Assembly (NCBI GenBank): GCA_963708025.1
Contig: CAVPSB010000016.1
Location: 352,001 to 416,000, forward strand
Length of the DNA: 64,000 bases
Source: an uncultured Candidatus Rokubacteria bacterium
GTDB lineage: Bacteria > Methylomirabilota > Methylomirabilia > Rokubacteriales > DASRDR01
Reading direction: 5' to 3'
Shown: positions 19,292-24,040 of the stretch, piece after piece
Layout: every line of letters begins with the position of its first letter
How positions within the stretch are numbered: the first letter of the stretch is position 1
Program-made: the position numbers and the translations under genes
Notes under the pieces: generated by a model
What the model was told of the DNA's origin: nothing
The model's input: the letters and a program-made list of their open reading frames with translations, nothing else
Database searches by the model: none

Positions 19292-20464
19292 TCAGACGCG
19301 GCGGAAATAGACGCGCGGATCCCCGTAGAAGAGATACGACGCCCAGGAGAAGTCCGTCGGCCCGGTCGCGTTCCGGCACGCCACCCGGGCGTCCCTGACC
19401 GCCCGCCCCAGCGGCTTCCCCTCGACCAGCGCCGAGTAGAACGCCTTCGCGAATGCCGCCGCCGCGGCGTCTCCCACCTGCCAGCGGTTGCCGATCAGGT
19501 AGGCGCCGGTCTCCAGGAAGGCGCGGGCCAACCCGAAGATGTCGAAGCGGTTCTTCCACTCGCCCTCGGTCTTGGCCGCCGCGGTCTCGCAGGCGTTCAT
19601 GAAGAAGAAGACCGGAGGCTTGCTTCCGAAGAACCCCATGATGGGTCCCGTGCTCATGTCGCGGTCGAAGAGCACGAGGCTGCTGAGGTGCGGCTTGTCG
19701 TTCCGGAAGTACGCGTGTCCGCTGAAGTGCACGATGTGGTAGCGGCCGCTCTTGATCGCCTTGTAGACGTCGTCGTACTTGGCCTTCGGGCCCTGCAGCA
19801 ACGACACCTTGGCGGCATCCCCCAGCGGCGCCAGCGTCTCCAGGATCGCCTGGGTCTCCGCCGCCGCCGCCGGCAAGGGGTCGTACTTCACGTTCCCGCG
19901 CGGCTGCGGCTGGGGCACGCTGATCAGCAGCACCGACAGCTGGGTCGCCCCCACCGTGGCCGCCGCCCGCTGGAGCGACGGGATCGCCGGCTTCGAGGAG
20001 TTCACGAAGCGCCCGACGAGGTGCTTGAAGCACAGGAAGTCGTCGTCGTCGTGCATCAGCTCCCACGGGTACTCGAGCAGCGCCTCGTCCATCCCGATTT
20101 CGAGGAACAGGTCGGGAGTCCGCAGCTCCCCCTGGACGTACCCCGGCATGATGAGGTTCAGGAGCTGGCCGCCGATCAGCTTGGTCTCGTCGAGGAGCGT
20201 CTCGTCCGGCGCGGCCCCGCCGGCGGCGCCGCCGCCTCGCGCATCGACCGCCACCGCCAGCTGATTCAGGCGGTCACGGATCGGCGTGAGCTCCTCGGAC
20301 CCCAGCCGCAGCTCCTCCAGCGGTGGACGGATCGTCGAGCGAAAGGGCGGGGTGTACTTCAGTCGATAGGTGTCTCCCCCCGCCCCCGGGCCCGGGCTGA
20401 ACAGCTCGACCTGGGCAGTGGCCCCCGCGAACCAGTCGATGCAGAAGCCGGTAGCCGGACTCAC
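19292..20464 (-). CDS. Standalone CHAT-domain (caspase-like) cysteine protease
   Basis: YPWELMHD, IVHFSGHA (His), FFFMNACET (Cys), AFLETGA..IG..WQVGD, WASYLFYGDP. Confidence 0.9.
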   Translation of the reverse strand: MSPATGFCIDWFAGATAQVELFSPGPGAGGDTYRLKYTPPFRSTIRPPLEELRLGSEELTPIRDRLNQLAVAVDARGGGAAGGAAPDETLLDETKLIGGQLLNLIMPGYVQGELRTPDLFLEIGMDEALLEYPWELMHDDDDFLCFKHLVGRFVNSSKPAIPSLQRAAATVGATQLSVLLISVPQPQPRGNVKYDPLPAAAAETQAILETLAPLGDAAKVSLLQGPKAKYDDVYKAIKSGRYHIVHFSGHAYFRNDKPHLSSLVLFDRDMSTGPIMGFFGSKPPVFFFMNACETAAAKTEGEWKNRFDIFGLARAFLETGAYLIGNRWQVGDAAAAAFAKAFYSALVEGKPLGRAVRDARVACRNATGPTDFSWASYLFYGDPRVYFRRV

Positions 20465-21249
20465 GATGCAACACCCCCTTCCATCGGCCGACTCTCCACG
20501 ACGGTCTGGACGACCGCCGGGTCGGCCACGGCCAGCTGGAAGCCTCGGCCGGCGAGCTTCGGCAGCTCGTGCTCATCCCCCAGGTGGGTCATCAGGTCCA
20601 GGTTCGTCACCGAGCCGACGTCCGAATAGAGGAAGCAGCTGGAGTTCTCGCACCGCTCCAGCCCGAGGAACTGCCCGGTGATCGACAGCCCGGCCGCTCT
20701 GACGCGATGCTTGATCGTCGAGATCCGCCCGGGATCCGGGCTTCGCCAGTACTTCGGATCGGTCGGCACCATCGAGATGACCGCGCCGCCCTCGAAGTCG
20801 TCCCAGATGATGTAGCGCCATTCGGGGGGCGGGGTGATCTCGCGGTCGGTCACGATGAAGAGCAGCCCGGAGTCCGGACCGATCCCGATCAGGTCGCGAA
20901 CCACCTGGCCCAGCTTCCGCTGGTCACACGTCCGCCGGAACCGCCCGGTCGAGTCCTTGGACGACACCGGCTTCTCCACCCGCTGCGCCGGGCTCAGCTG
21001 TGCGAGCGCGTCATCGACCGCCTTCCCGCCCCTCAGCAGCCGATCCAGGTTTCGCCGCGCCGCGTCCAGCAGGTTGATCTTGGGCACCTGGGGGGAGATG
21101 TAGAATCGCTGGAAGCTGATCCGTGGCTGGTCCATGTTGTAGAACCGCTCGATCTCGAGCAGCATTGCCCACAGCGCCGGACCGACCTCGAGGGAGGTCT
21201 CGCCATCGACCAGCAGCAGCACCTGCACGATCCGAACGGGGTCGCTCAT
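20461..21249 (-). CDS. Archaemetzincin (M54)-like protein lacking catalytic zinc ligands
   Basis: VTD..., AVIS...DPKYW, GLERCENSSC..S...D match the archaemetzincin pattern, but HExxHxxGxxH is replaced by SITGQFLGLER. Confidence 0.65.
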   Translation of the reverse strand: MSDPVRIVQVLLLVDGETSLEVGPALWAMLLEIERFYNMDQPRISFQRFYISPQVPKINLLDAARRNLDRLLRGGKAVDDALAQLSPAQRVEKPVSSKDSTGRFRRTCDQRKLGQVVRDLIGIGPDSGLLFIVTDREITPPPEWRYIIWDDFEGGAVISMVPTDPKYWRSPDPGRISTIKHRVRAAGLSITGQFLGLERCENSSCFLYSDVGSVTNLDLMTHLGDEHELPKLAGRGFQLAVADPAVVQTVVESRPMEGGVAS

Positions 21250-21267
21250 CGTCCGCTGACCTGGCGG

Positions 21268-21359
21268 CTAGTGCCGTTCCAACTTGTTCCAGCTAGTGCT
21301 TTCGAGGAACACAGTGCGCGCATCGTCTATCTTGGCTCATGTAGTTGGAACGGCACTAG
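21268..21359. mobile_element. MITE-like element with perfect inverted ends, CTAG at each end
   Basis: CTAGTGCCGTTCCAACT (21268-21284) and AGTTGGAACGGCACTAG (21343-21359); more AT-rich interior. Confidence 0.7.
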
Positions 21360-23071
21360 GAGATTCCCACCTTCGCGTACGCATCGGTGAGGGCATCGAG
21401 CTTCGGCTGGCGCTGCGCATCGCCGGCATAGTACGTGCTGGCGACGTTCCGCAGCGTCTGGAGCGTCTGCGAGAACGTGGCCAGCTTGTCGAGCCGGGTG
21501 AGGCACAGGTAGTAGAGCACGGCCGCCTCGCGCGGCGTGAAGACCGGTTGCCCCTGAGCGTCCTTCGCGCTGAGCACATTGTACGCCGCCTTGTTGTGGA
21601 TGTTGCTGTTGGTGTGCACCCCGCCGTTGTCCTGCGGCGTGTTGACGTACTGGTCCATGTGCGCGGGATCGCCGGTCCGGGTAGGGTCCCGCATGTCGCG
21701 CAGGGGAAGTCCGCCGGCCCGGAACCCGGAGCCGATCTCCCAGCTCCAGCCGTCCACCGTCCCGCCGGTGGTCGGGTTGGCCACGTCCCAGTTCTTGATG
21801 ATGATCCCGAAGATGTCGCTGAACGATTCGTTCAGCGCGCCCGATTGCCGGAGGTACACGAGGTCGGCGGTGAACTCGGTCACCCCGTGCGTCAGCTCGT
21901 GGGCGATGGCGTCGAGGTGGCGGGCGTAGCTCCGGAGGGCGCCGGTGGCGTCCCGGGCCTGGCCGTACCACATCCGCCGCCTCCACCACACGGCGTTGTG
22001 CCACTCGGGTGGCGCTTCCTCAGCCGGCACCGTGCAGTTCACGTAGGAGACGAGCTCCATGCCCTTGTCGTCGACCCCGTCCCGCAGCAGCACCGACTTG
22101 TAGAAGTCGAAGACGCGCATCGCATTGACATGGGCCGAGACCGCCGGCGCATTCTTGAACTCGCTCGACGGCCCGCCGATCGGCTCGGCCGGCGGCGGGG
22201 TGGTGTCCACGTCGTTCAATCCGAAGTCGAACGTCCGGATTCCCCGGATCGGGTCGCTCATCTCGAACGCGGCGCCGTTCTTGCGGCCCCAGAACACCTG
22301 GGTCGCTCCGTCCTCGTCGGCGCCCCGGCACTGACTGGGGATCTCCAGGGTCGGCGCCGCGCTCCAGTAGAGGAGCACCGCGCCGTCGTGGGCGTCCACG
22401 AGATAGTTGACCTCGGGATGCCGCTGGGCCAGCGAGCGACCGAGCCCGTGACTCCGCGTCGCTTCGAGAAAGCCGGGCGGCGCCGCCGGCACGTTCCGGA
22501 AGAAGTAGACGAGGTGCCACTGGTCCGACCCGTCGTCGTGGTAGTAGGTGAGCTCCGGAGGCTCCACGCCCTCCAGCGTCGCCTCGGCGACCTTCGCCAG
22601 CGTCGCGATGCGGCTCCGGGCATGGGCGGCGCCCAGCGCGGCGATGGGTGACGCGTTCTTGACCTCGGCGAGCTCGGCGTCGACCGAGAGGAGCTCACGG
22701 TTTCGGTCCAGCTCGACCACGGCCCGGGAGCCGAAGACGGGGATCGTCGCCTTGGTCTGGACGAAGCGCACCGTCCAGGTGCCGGTCAACGGTGAGCGCT
22801 GGCTGTCGCGCAGCCGCATGTCGGGAACCACCTCGGGACGCTCGGGCGCGGTCAGTCCCCGCAGCGACGGCCGAGTGTCCCGCCCGAACAGCTGGCTCAG
22901 ATAGAAGCGCGCGGCCGCCTCTTCGCTGTTGAAGCCGGGCGCCGCCTCGGCGGCCCCGGCCCGGGCCGGCCCCCCGCCGCGGAGCGCGAGAGGTCGCGCG
23001 CCCACCGCCTGCAGATCGTGGTCTTCCCGGTCGGCGACGTTGAAGTGGATGCTGTGGAAGCCGGTGGCCAT
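21356..23071 (-). CDS. Thermolysin-like M4 metalloprotease with propeptide and no signal peptide
   Basis: NAVW, AHELTHGV, GALNESFSD, DNGGVHTNSNIHNKAAY; FTP/PepSY-like VRFVQ...IPVFG and YLVDAHDG; N-terminus MATGFHSIHF is not hydrophobic. Confidence 0.92.
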   Translation of the reverse strand: MATGFHSIHFNVADREDHDLQAVGARPLALRGGGPARAGAAEAAPGFNSEEAAARFYLSQLFGRDTRPSLRGLTAPERPEVVPDMRLRDSQRSPLTGTWTVRFVQTKATIPVFGSRAVVELDRNRELLSVDAELAEVKNASPIAALGAAHARSRIATLAKVAEATLEGVEPPELTYYHDDGSDQWHLVYFFRNVPAAPPGFLEATRSHGLGRSLAQRHPEVNYLVDAHDGAVLLYWSAAPTLEIPSQCRGADEDGATQVFWGRKNGAAFEMSDPIRGIRTFDFGLNDVDTTPPPAEPIGGPSSEFKNAPAVSAHVNAMRVFDFYKSVLLRDGVDDKGMELVSYVNCTVPAEEAPPEWHNAVWWRRRMWYGQARDATGALRSYARHLDAIAHELTHGVTEFTADLVYLRQSGALNESFSDIFGIIIKNWDVANPTTGGTVDGWSWEIGSGFRAGGLPLRDMRDPTRTGDPAHMDQYVNTPQDNGGVHTNSNIHNKAAYNVLSAKDAQGQPVFTPREAAVLYYLCLTRLDKLATFSQTLQTLRNVASTYYAGDAQRQPKLDALTDAYAKVGIS

Positions 23072-23132
23072 CACTGTCTCTCCCTCGGGTCGCCACGCAT
23101 CGGCGCGCCGCCCCGCGGCTCGCACCCCGACG

Positions 23133-23711
23133 TTATCGCGTGCTCCGGACCGGCCGGCCCAGGATCGGTCCCACCGCCCTCGGCGTCGTCGCGGCCACAC
23201 CCCTCGGGCCGTGTGGGGTCCGACAGCCCGTCATGGGGGCCACCAGCACCTGGAGGAACATGTCGGCCGAATCCGTGACCAGACCGGTGCTGACGAGGAG
23301 GGCCACGTCGCCGCCGGCCGCCGCCCGGGTGATGGCGAACCGCAAGCGACGATCGAGGCCGCTGCTCGCCGGTGTCCAGGGAATCTGGCTGCCGTCCCCC
23401 ACCAGGTAGCTGGCCTGGACCGGCACGCCCTCCGGATCGGCATTGAACCGGTCGAGCTGCGCGAGCAGCTCGTCGAGCGTCTGGGGGAGAATCTCGCGTC
23501 TCAGGACGAGCGTGGCCAGGGGATCGTTCAGCCACTGGGCCGTCTCGGCGGGCGTCATCGGGCACGGCGCGTCGTCGAGCCCGAGCACGAACCGGTAGAG
23601 CCGGCCCGCCTCCAGGACGTATCCGTCACGGGCCGCCGCGAGCCCCGCGTAACGGGTCGGGAACGACCGGGACGCCCGGGGCGGAGGCGTCGCGAAGCTC
23701 GATCGGGTCAT
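23133..23711 (-). CDS. Hypothetical protein, probably 3'-truncated
   Basis: Protein-like composition up to FLQVL, then low-complexity tail; first gene after the promoter at 23845-23873. Confidence 0.5.
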   Translation of the reverse strand: MTRSSFATPPPRASRSFPTRYAGLAAARDGYVLEAGRLYRFVLGLDDAPCPMTPAETAQWLNDPLATLVLRREILPQTLDELLAQLDRFNADPEGVPVQASYLVGDGSQIPWTPASSGLDRRLRFAITRAAAGGDVALLVSTGLVTDSADMFLQVLVAPMTGCRTPHGPRGVAATTPRAVGPILGRPVRSTR

Positions 23712-23844: not shown

Positions 23845-23892
23845 ACACTAGAGCGAGGCCGAGAGGCCGTCAAGTGTATCCAAATGGATACA
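23845..23892 (-). promoter_or_regulatory. Sigma70-like promoter with adjacent palindromic operator
   Basis: TTGACG-17-TAGTGT (23873-23845); TGTATCCA-AA-TGGATACA at 23875-23892. Confidence 0.6.
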
Positions 23893-23959: not shown

Positions 23960-24040
23960 CTACTCCTCCCAGGCGGCCAGGAGGACCACGTGGAGCAGGG
24001 CAACGATCAGGACCAGCAAGAGCGCCGGTGGCATGTTCAT
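23960..24040 (-). CDS. 26-aa hydrophobic micropeptide
   Basis: RBS AAGGAGG then MNMPPALLLVLIVALLHVVLLAAWEE*. Confidence 0.55.
   Translation of the reverse strand: MNMPPALLLVLIVALLHVVLLAAWEE

Follow-up and report, generated by a model that had tools for sequence, protein, structure and literature searches.

Within the 64,000-nucleotide stretch of DNA analyzed here (the window), three genes on the minus strand form what we read as a self-contained, horizontally mobile cassette encoding a latent intracellular proteolytic module, a reading to which we assign a probability of about 0.42. In the order of transcription, the cassette encodes a thermolysin-type M4 protease precursor (571 aa; 21356–23071), a putative archaemetzincin-fold pseudoprotease called X in this work (262 aa; 20461–21249), and a caspase-like CHAT cysteine protease of clan CD (390 aa; 19292–20464). 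These genes and their coordinates had been named in the original prediction and were borne out when the ORFs of the window were checked. In distant phyla, M4, X, and CHAT are passed on together as a compact unit, and this conserved co-encoding suggests an intracellular protease module that has not been described before. The original prediction had put forward a unit consisting of a cytoplasmic M4 enzyme, a dead archaemetzincin, and a CHAT protease devoid of a sensor; such a unit is supported because the three genes co-occur elsewhere and no signal peptide was seen in the M4 homologues by hydropathy and inspection. It is very likely that the three genes constitute a real functional module and likely that this module acts in the cytoplasm, where it possibly operates as a latent protease relay, with defense or cell suicide as one of its conceivable roles.

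With X alone used as the query, 21 loci were fetched (three from genomes and 18 from metagenomes), whose hosts, where named, are Alphaproteobacteria, Hyphomicrobiales, and Isosphaeraceae MAGs and whose GC content ranges from 0.42 to 0.71. An M4 gene adjoins X in all 19 loci with room for it, and in 18 of them it lies upstream on the same strand; the exception is L005, where the 5′ part of the M4 gene is found on the opposite strand. The CHAT gene follows X in 16 of 17 loci with room, while in L021 it is absent and X itself is broken. The co-occurrence of the three genes was therefore confirmed outside the window, across phyla and with an order that is constant except at a single locus. Beyond the three genes, no ORF family recurs in three or more loci, so that no fourth member of the cassette emerges, and the flanks vary. 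Across nine loci, the three proteins have correlated pairwise distances (Mantel r 0.57–0.84, p 0.0004–0.003), which indicates joint inheritance, not binding. Their rarity is also similar, with 17 close homologues of X and 14 proteins sharing the N-terminal region of CHAT. Chance adjacency of three unrelated protease genes, with no functional link among them, is a vanishingly unlikely explanation and is already contradicted by the synteny seen in every informative locus except L021, by the order kept everywhere except in L005 among unrelated flanks, and by the overlap of start and stop codons described below.

The stop codon of X ends at 20461 and the GTG start codon of CHAT lies at 20464, and these coordinates make the proposed GTGA overlap of the two genes real. 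In 15 of 16 other loci, the stop of X likewise overlaps or abuts the start of CHAT. The gap between M4 and X measures 3–20 nt across the loci, or the two genes overlap. In the window, the spacer between them holds an unstranded MITE-like repeat of ~91 nt (21268–21358), which was recognized by BLAST of the spacer against the genome (51 HSPs, representing ~25 other places on 15 contigs). The repeat has 13-nt terminal inverted repeats and TA flanks and overlaps the stop codon of M4; in metagenome contigs, positions 21267/21268 and 21359 are marked by a depth spike and loose ends. The MITE is real, as had been stated, and its excision leaves 18 nt from the M4 stop to the X start. A search for longer forms returned a single database ORF (P0022) that fuses the catalytic part of M4 with X; it counts as weak support only, because a real fusion, a frameshift, and an assembly error are all possible.

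Two elements of the original prediction were not upheld. A hypothetical gene at 23133–23711, also on the minus strand, had been counted among the members of the operon, but none of the 21 loci contains a homologue. According to paralogue alignment and the locus survey, it is a flank marker outside the cassette, namely a 3′-truncated remnant of a 540-aa family. Residues 6–156 of its product align with residues 2–155 of the paralogue (40% identity, E 9e-27), and the similarity stops at residue 156, around window position 23244. Among 26 related genomes, the family occurs only in the window's own, which also carries the full-length paralogue (contig C12). The 5′ border of the cassette is thus occupied by a truncated resident gene, and the GC content of the cassette is 0.63–0.69 versus 0.71–0.78 in the flanks. 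The second element is the single promoter behind which the genes were said to lie: a sigma-70 scan found no site where 0.3 were expected, and a terminator scan found one terminator-like site, inside the CHAT gene, where 1.3 were expected, both scans being uninformative for a high-GC genome. One metatranscriptome run (X20) contains a 297-nt contig that is identical to positions 19292–19551 and runs past the end; since such libraries can contain DNA, this contig is not proof of transcription.

The assignment of the first gene to the M4 family rests on Pfam matches to Peptidase_M4 (1.3e-22), Peptidase_M4_C (2.5e-34), and the FTP propeptide motif (2.7e-5), with scores above the gathering cut-offs for PF01447 (81.3 bits, cut-off 22.4) and PF02868 (119 bits, cut-off 24.4). 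The active site is intact, as had been proposed: the motifs HELTH, NESFSD, and HTNS show no variation among the 11 homologues compared, and neither do the zinc ligands and catalytic residues H391, E392, H395, E415, and H486. The conserved start codon is the ATG at 23071 and not the GTG at 23200; this start and the N-terminal motif are kept in 12 of 12 sequences. From there, a family-specific N-terminal extension of ~50 aa is followed by the FTP-containing propeptide and by the catalytic and helical domains. The best PDB sequence matches, covering residues 101–558, are the Bacillus neutral protease 1npc (4.6e-35) and the thermolysin precursor 5a3y; thermolysin is matched at 1.3e-31 and protealysin (2vqx) at 1.4e-24, which is weaker than the neutral protease. 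The thermolysin precursor aligns through the propeptide, whose presence had been claimed. Judged by its sequence, M4 has the layout of a zymogen and has retained a thermolysin-type propeptide.

Thermolysin-type proteases are textbook secreted enzymes, and a signal peptide is typical of the secreted M4 members but does not define the family. In the M4 protein of the cassette, the conserved N-terminal extension of ~50 aa stands where a signal peptide would be. Hydropathy and inspection revealed no signal-like or transmembrane stretch, and a hydrophobic stretch is absent from the first 45 residues in 11 of 11 homologues. The highest 10-residue Kyte–Doolittle mean is at most 1.06 and all 19-residue windows fall below 1.6, values that belong to a crude check and not to SignalP. 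The proposal that M4 has no signal peptide, not even a cryptic one, was upheld by these means in all 11 homologues.

X has no match in NCBIfam, in PADLOC, or in Pfam at E-values up to 0.1, which includes PF07998/M54. Its AlphaFold2 model has a pLDDT of 88 and a pTM of 0.87, and the best five PDB matches found by Foldseek are all archaemetzincins: 3lmc (5.4e-7), 2x7m (1.9e-6), 3zvs chains A and B (3e-5), and 4axq (1.5e-4), with TM-scores of 0.63–0.67 on the target. In the profile search against PDB sequences, 3lmc appears at an E-value of 0.14 only. The nearest ESM Atlas clusters are unnamed and occur most often in Chloroflexota, and Peptidase_M54 clusters come next; the result agrees with the fold and is a lead, not independent proof. 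Family alignment, model, Foldseek, and profile alignment to 3lmc together predict that X has an archaemetzincin fold in which the catalytic zinc site has been lost family-wide, in agreement with the initial description of an archaemetzincin-like protein with replaced zinc ligands. The zinc-ligand positions of the window protein read S-I-T-G-Q...R in place of HEXXHXXGXXH, and HExxH is found at the catalytic position in none of 164 family members. The CX4C pair (Cys200, Cys205) is kept in all 164. The second pair, CXXC, has been replaced with unchanged spacing: no member has a cysteine at either position, while E226 is present in 152 and H227 in 161. The family, which comprises ~218 cluster representatives at 50% identity, also retains a number of charged and aromatic residues that do not vary.

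X further contains an insertion (residues ~52–110) that is poorly modeled, with a pLDDT of 63 over residues 61–80. Craspase cleaves Csx30, and by comparison X might be a substrate or effector whose insertion is cut by CHAT or M4, freeing an active fragment. The low model confidence of the insertion would suit such a role, as would the rapid evolution of X, whose mean pairwise difference (0.60) is the highest of the three proteins (0.53 for CHAT and 0.47 for M4). We consider this very unlikely, however, as X has no recognizable toxic domain and its strongly conserved residues map to the metzincin core and the metal-site region, outside the insertion.

The third gene encodes a protein whose residues 100–382 match the Pfam CHAT family (PF12770, 1.8e-35, 123.3 bits, cut-off 24). 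Its dyad, described from the start as intact, is indeed invariant: the histidine of the GH motif (H250) and the cysteine of the NAC motif (C292) are present in 14 of 14 proteins. The model of CHAT (pLDDT 81.5) has its best Foldseek matches in Csx29/TPR-CHAT (8eex_B at 6.9e-13 and 7y9x_B) and separase, with SAVED-CHAT (8tl0) and the anti-sigma factor DdvA also among the fold matches; in NCBIfam, there is a weak match to the HetF model. The N-terminal beta region of ~95 aa is specific to the family and was found in only 14 proteins, all of 386–402 aa and all CHAT proteins. The protein was rightly described as having no sensor, for Pfam gives the CHAT domain alone, with no TPR, SAVED, or other known sensor domain. 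A complex prediction for X and CHAT, run without controls, scored 0.00 twice and weighs neither way.

PADLOC, which had been suggested as a check for a defense system, called none; what remained was a domain-level match of CHAT to BovA, which is partial (31.7 bits, 159 of 711 model positions, 510–668). In the window, the cassette is accompanied by PGM/PMM, PIG-L, a DAO oxidoreductase, and a hydantoinase. Of ten immediate neighbors in six other loci, nine gave no PADLOC match, and the tenth, UvrB according to Pfam, matched only the helicase parts of defense models. Further neighbors in other loci include an alkyl sulfatase, an ABC transporter, LodA, a histidine kinase, an M28 peptidase, and a patatin-like protein. 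Among the neighbors examined, no defense-island context was seen; they are metabolic or unrelated genes instead. Together with the lack of copies in phage and plasmid records (see below), these results speak against a defense role. A RiPP or peptide-maturation role was ruled out because no conserved small precursor ORF adjoins the cassette.

These surroundings bear on the idea that the cassette is not a conflict system but serves the host's own physiology through regulated proteolysis inside the cell, for instance in protein turnover during starvation, in development, or in the removal of a specific regulator, with X tuning the choice of substrate or the timing. This idea is favored by the location of the cassette among metabolic and signaling genes, not defense genes, and by searches of 72,556 plasmid records, 50,697 phage records, and IMG/VR, which turned up no copy. 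Some CHAT proteins also have roles in cell biology, as the weak HetF match and the presence of separase and DdvA among the fold matches recall. On the other hand, the distribution is very patchy: X is present in one of 61 related genomes, and one peptide pattern, scanned against genomes from 185,579 species in a search that can miss relatives, yielded three X loci. The GC content of the cassette is foreign, and traces of mobile DNA are adjacent to it, namely the MITE, the truncated gene, and, in L004, an IS3-like transposase. Patchiness, foreign GC, and mobile-DNA traces are more in keeping with an accessory trait that can be transferred than with core physiology, and we regard the physiological explanation as unlikely. 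If it were nevertheless correct, X would still define a new family with a clear and testable partnership.

For the latent intracellular module that we prefer, the following sequence of events may be envisaged. X would be a regulatory subunit, either an adaptor or sensor or an inhibitor, made in step with CHAT through the overlapping stop and start codons, and it would keep CHAT, the M4 zymogen, or both inactive. Some trigger, sensed by X or CHAT, would set off a cleavage relay ending in the removal of the M4 propeptide. The freed broad-specificity, thermolysin-like protease could then cause growth arrest or death from within the cytoplasm, in a manner comparable to abortive infection or programmed cell death. 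Protealysin, an intracellular M4 enzyme held in check by an inhibitor, and the protease cascade started by SAVED-CHAT, both described below, are precedents for such a scheme. The relay order and the trigger are guesses, and the exact wiring set out here is improbable in this precise form. That the purpose is conflict or cell suicide at all seems possible but somewhat doubtful. It is rather unlikely that the cassette is a new type of all-protease cell-suicide or immune module working inside the cell, with a pseudo-metzincin as sensor or brake, CHAT as initiator, and a thermolysin zymogen as executioner. If true, bacteria would have their own equivalent of initiator/executioner protease cascades, complete with a pseudoprotease regulator, and this would be the first M4 zymogen used as an intracellular death effector. 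Should the relay hold, the known conflict and cell-death systems of prokaryotes would be joined by a protease-only module, the archaemetzincin fold, about whose biology little is known, would gain a role as a regulatory pseudoenzyme, and a compact three-gene system would become available for studying zymogen control.

The literature search turned up no description of a unit of M4, archaemetzincin-like, and CHAT proteins, in line with the earlier statement that no described system with this triad was known, although supplements might list such neighborhoods. The word "thermolysin" is absent from two eLife papers on conflict systems (PMC7159879, PMC8195603), whose mentions of CHAT and of metallopeptidases concern other architectures. 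Archaemetzincins (MEROPS M54; AmzA) are defined by the motif HEXXHXXGXXHCX4CXMX17CXXC, as given in PMC3427221. X shares their fold, judged by its top five PDB matches, and the spacing G-x-x-[H>R]-C-x4-C-x-[M/L]-x17, but the three zinc histidines and the catalytic glutamate are replaced family-wide, x-E-H-x stands where archaemetzincins have CXXC, and X carries an insertion of ~60–80 aa relative to their 158–191 aa.

The protealysin–emfourin pair of Serratia proteamaculans resembles the cassette in that an M4 protease has no signal peptide and the gene directly downstream in the operon controls the protease. Intracellular protealysin is toxic without emfourin, its operon-encoded inhibitor, and cleaves FtsZ and RecA (PMC9505478). 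A toxin–immunity arrangement of this kind might apply here too, in which M4, an effector aimed at other bacteria or at a host, exits by a non-classical route, X is the cytoplasmic immunity protein, and CHAT matures or releases M4. Besides the protealysin precedent, in which loss of the inhibitor is harmful, the position of X directly after M4 in 18 of 19 loci, the ORF fusing both, and the T4 gp19-like tail-tube gene that adjoins the cassette in L016 speak for it. Yet M4, with its long FTP-type propeptide aligned, lies closer to thermolysin and neutral protease than to the protealysin type with its short propeptide. The downstream protein X belongs to no Pfam family and has a predicted metzincin fold, from which the emfourin fold probably differs. 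No conserved secretion or injection genes adjoin the cassette, and the constant presence of CHAT with an intact dyad, the third gene that protealysin–emfourin does not have (16 of 17 loci with room), is left unexplained. A toxin–immunity pair is quite unlikely. For the preferred regulated zymogen, the pairing of iRhom with ADAM17, in which a catalytically dead relative of proteases is reported to control the zymogen of an active metalloprotease, may serve as an analogy in idea only, since neither the protein families nor the cell compartment nor the organisms are related.

With Csx29/TPR-CHAT of type III-E Craspase, SAVED-CHAT, and BovA, the cassette has in common the CHAT fold and its His/Cys dyad. 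Type III-E Craspase is marked by a TPR sensor arm on the CHAT protein and a neighboring gRAMP/Cas7-11 gene. Unlike Csx29 chains (640–735 aa), the 390-aa CHAT of the cassette has no TPR by Pfam, and no Cas genes were seen among the neighbors examined, with metabolic genes flanking the cassette in the window. SAVED-CHAT is reported to drive a cleavage cascade through PCaspase in type III-B CRISPR systems (bioRxiv 10.1101/2023.06.23.546230), while CHAT of the cassette has no SAVED domain by Pfam and no cyclic-nucleotide genes were seen among the neighbors examined. Borvo is set apart by the lack of a full-length match to the BovA model, and the bacterial gasdermin–protease systems by their gasdermin neighbor, as the loci share no fourth gene family and the ORF upstream of the cassette in the window is the remnant of the unrelated 540-aa family. 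What distinguishes the cassette from these immunity CHAT systems is the company that its CHAT protease keeps, an M4 zymogen and a putative pseudo-metzincin.

The minus strand of the window carries four ORFs at 19292-23711, which the original prediction had read as one operon. Sequence evidence points to a smaller, tightly packed unit of three genes, encoding in order a thermolysin-type M4 protease, the 262-aa protein X and a caspase-like CHAT protease; two of these proteases are catalytically intact and one is dead. With X as the only query, 21 loci were retrieved. Metagenomes supplied 18 of them, and the other three came from a set of contigs with one genome per species, belonging to MAGs of an alphaproteobacterium, a member of the Hyphomicrobiales and a member of the Isosphaeraceae. 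The four window proteins served as tblastn queries to establish gene content. In 18 loci, M4 is immediately upstream of X and co-oriented with it, and in L005 its 5' part is upstream of X but on the opposite strand (L005:1-760); since the contigs of L007 and L018 start inside X and leave no room for M4, it accompanies X in 19/19 loci with room. CHAT follows X directly in 16 loci. The contigs of L005, L012, L019 and L020 end in or just after X, while in L021 (L021:780-2155) X carries a frameshift and is truncated after residue ~150, with no CHAT in the next ~900 nt; CHAT is thus present in 16 of the 17 loci with room. The predicted synteny of M4, M54-like and CHAT genes therefore recurs, with L005 and L021 as the exceptions among the 21 loci. 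In the three genome loci, M4 and CHAT were confirmed by Pfam.

No further ORF family was found in at least three loci outside the three genes when 1143 ORFs of the loci and the window were compared all-against-all, and flanks are shared only in the near-identical pair L002/L009. GC content varies among the loci from 0.42 to 0.71. In nine complete loci, the pairwise distances of the three proteins, of which X evolves fastest, are correlated with one another (Mantel r 0.57, 0.84 and 0.68; p 0.0004-0.003), which shows inheritance as a unit, not contact.

The fourth, "hypothetical" ORF (23133-23711, minus strand) has a counterpart in 0/21 loci by tblastn, and among 26 related genomes its family occurs only in the window's own. 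There, a full-length 540-aa paralogue without a Pfam family is encoded on another contig (C12; L024:1495-3114). Residues 6-156 of the ORF product align to residues 2-155 of this paralogue (40% identity, E 9e-27); beyond residue 156 the similarity ends, and the last 36 residues are unrelated. Because of this break and the lack of counterparts, the ORF is the remnant of a gene truncated at its 3' end and marks the 5' border of the cassette near 23244, and its proposed membership in the operon is not upheld. Upstream of the remnant, at 23845-23891 on the minus strand, lie a palindrome whose arms are 7 bp long and, after it, TTGACG and TAGTGT separated by 17 nt; this arrangement may represent an operator and a promoter and was not picked up by a consensus scan. 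A 26-codon ORF for a very hydrophobic peptide, preceded by a strong GAAGGAGG ribosome-binding site, lies at 23960-24040 (minus strand) between a DAO oxidoreductase gene and the remnant.

The M4 ORF (21356-23200, minus strand, 614 codons) matches Pfam Peptidase_M4 (1.3e-22), Peptidase_M4_C (2.5e-34) and the FTP propeptide motif (2.7e-5). Judged against 11 homologues, translation starts at the ATG at 23071, giving a protein of 571 aa, and the N-terminal segment M-x(2-3)-F-x-S-I-H-F-N-V is shared at this start by 12/12 sequences. The active-site motifs HELTH, NESFSD and HTNS are intact, as predicted, with H391, E392, H395, E415 and H486 invariant (11/11). Among solved structures, the closest are those of Bacillus neutral protease 1npc (4.6e-35) and thermolysin; protealysin 2vqx is farther (1.4e-24). 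The full thermolysin precursor 5a3y aligned to residues 101-558, that is, through the propeptide, and M4 has a zymogen layout. Propeptides of thermolysin-type enzymes act as intramolecular chaperones and as inhibitors until they are removed. The predicted lack of a signal peptide agrees with a crude check by hydropathy, in which 0/11 M4 proteins had a signal-like stretch in the first 45 residues (maximum 10-residue mean <=1.06) and 0/11 a membrane-span-like window; in the hydropathy check, M4, X and CHAT are all without an export signal.

X (20461-21249, minus strand) has no match in Pfam, NCBIfam or PADLOC. Its close homologues number 17 among 5.8 billion clustered proteins, and a profile search of 1.84 billion representatives returned 218 matches at E<=0.001 (163 of them at E<=1e-30), with lengths almost always of 230-280 aa. 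The AlphaFold2 model of X, built from an 18-row alignment, is confident (pLDDT 88.0, pTM 0.87), and its top five PDB matches in Foldseek are all archaemetzincins, namely 3lmc (5.4e-7), 2x7m (1.9e-6), chains A and B of 3zvs, and 4axq, at probability 1.00 and TM 0.63-0.67 on the target; the remaining metzincins score far lower. The family profile "clsivGellGlerCeNpeCfly" aligns to a 22-residue stretch of 3lmc. The archaemetzincin motif is given in PMC3427221 as HEXXHXXGXXHCX4CXMX17CXXC. In the window's X, the three zinc-His positions are S, Q and R, and the catalytic-Glu position is I; HExxH at the expected place is found in 0/164 aligned family members. Given these structural matches and the lost motif, X is an archaemetzincin-fold pseudoenzyme, in line with the earlier reading that its zinc ligands are replaced. 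C200 and C205 are present in 164/164 members, and no member (0/164) has a Cys at the CXXC position with the same x17 spacing, which instead holds E226 (152/164) and H227 (161/164). K180, R182, R184, W168 and D164 are almost invariant too. X probably retains a metal site of changed make-up.

CHAT (19292-20464, minus strand, 390 aa) matches Pfam CHAT over residues 100-382 (1.8e-35), and its catalytic residues are intact as claimed, H250 (in G-H) and C292 (in N-A-C-E) being invariant in 14/14 sequences. Its model (pLDDT 81.5, pTM 0.85) is most similar to Csx29/TPR-CHAT of type III-E CRISPR (8eex_B, 6.9e-13) and to separase; SAVED-CHAT and the anti-sigma factor DdvA are also among the matches. No sensor domain was detected in the 390-aa protein, again as predicted. 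Residues 1-95 form a small beta region and then a variable linker rich in Ala, Gly and Pro, and this N-terminal region is found in only 14 database proteins, all of them CHAT proteins of 386-402 aa. The loop after the catalytic Cys (residues 293-308) is variable and modelled with low confidence (pLDDT about 45). In a divergent subgroup (L016:2155-3816, L018:730-2373), CHAT bears an extra acidic C-terminal tail of ~160 aa.

The genes are tightly packed. CHAT starts at a GTG (20464) that shares nucleotides with the X stop codon TGA (20461-20463), forming the GTGA overlap noted originally, and the two genes overlap or abut in 15/16 loci (15-nt gap in L014), a count in which the choice of start codon is ambiguous for L001 and L003. 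The 106-nt M4-X spacer contains a TA-flanked, MITE-like element of ~91 nt (~21268-21358) bounded by 13-nt terminal inverted repeats. It is found at ~25 further sites in this genome, spread over 15 contigs. One end of the element contributes part of the M4 stop codon, and its ends coincide with break points and a depth spike in metagenome contigs. Removal of the element leaves 18 nt between the M4 stop and the X start, exactly as claimed, and the M4-X distance across loci is 3-20 nt or an overlap. In one database protein (P0022, 571 aa), a single ORF runs from M4 catalytic domains straight into a full X domain; this may be a natural M4-X fusion, or else a frameshift or assembly error.

Signs of horizontal acquisition include the truncated resident gene at the cassette border, a GC content of 0.63-0.69 in the cassette vs 0.71-0.78 in the flanks, and the absence of X from all but one of the 61 related genomes that were searched, 43 of them >=90% complete with <=5% contamination. 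The plasmid, phage and IMG/VR collections yielded no relative of X. Contigs 90-100% identical to parts of 19292-23244 are present in metagenome runs from soil and bog; one public run (X1) covers 29/30 bins of this interval, and since this run may come from the very sample behind the window, it is not independent support. In the window, the cassette neighbours PGM/PMM, DAO oxidoreductase, hydantoinase, dienelactone hydrolase and luciferase-like monooxygenase genes, and a PIG-L deacetylase gene that is convergent to CHAT and ends 5 nt from its stop. Elsewhere, neighbours include alkyl sulfatase, GST and UvrB (L001), an ABC transporter and an alpha/beta hydrolase (L002), LodA (L003), a histidine kinase with EAL and GGDEF proteins (L013), an M28 peptidase (L015), and a patatin-like lipase/phospholipase with a metallo-beta-lactamase-fold protein (L020). 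Convergent genes lie just downstream of CHAT in L004 (IS3-like transposase, HTH_21 + rve) and L016 (T4 gp19-like tail-tube gene; L016:4109-4822). Beyond the L004 transposase is a RiPP-like nitroreductase/ThiF/YcaO cluster, the two together lying at L004:9899-16250. The L020 patatin-like phospholipase gene (L020:4655-5893) immediately precedes M4 in the same orientation, 129 nt away, and has no PADLOC match. A PADLOC scan of 10 immediate neighbours left nine without a match, UvrB matching only helicase parts of defence models, and no system was recognised in the cassette itself.

We propose that X would act as a regulatory subunit holding CHAT and/or pro-M4 silent, and that a trigger would lead to cleavage and release mature M4 loose in the cytoplasm. 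The conserved M4 N-terminal extension and CHAT loop 293-308 are candidate docking or cleavage elements. The cassette may serve defence or cell suicide, or internal physiology, or it may encode an exported toxin with its immunity protein. Its patchy, mobile-looking distribution favours an accessory conflict trait; however, this reading is weakened by the lack of defence-island context and of a PADLOC system.

No description of the M4, X and CHAT triad was found in the full-text literature as available to the search, supplementary tables lying outside it, or in the passages of two survey papers on conflict systems. The conservation of the cassette is striking and directly testable, while its function is a proposal. 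The M4 and CHAT genes are members of known families, whereas X shares the fold of archaemetzincins but fails that family's defining motifs. The nearest known kind is multi-protease regulatory or conflict modules. Among functional precedents, the closest are the protealysin-emfourin operon, where an intracellular M4 protease can harm the cell that makes it unless held in check by a partner from the same operon (PMC9505478), and type III CRISPR, where CHAT proteases are able to initiate immune cascades in which one protease cleaves another (bioRxiv 10.1101/2023.06.23.546230). Pseudoproteases that act as regulators, for example iRhom, are a precedent by analogy alone.
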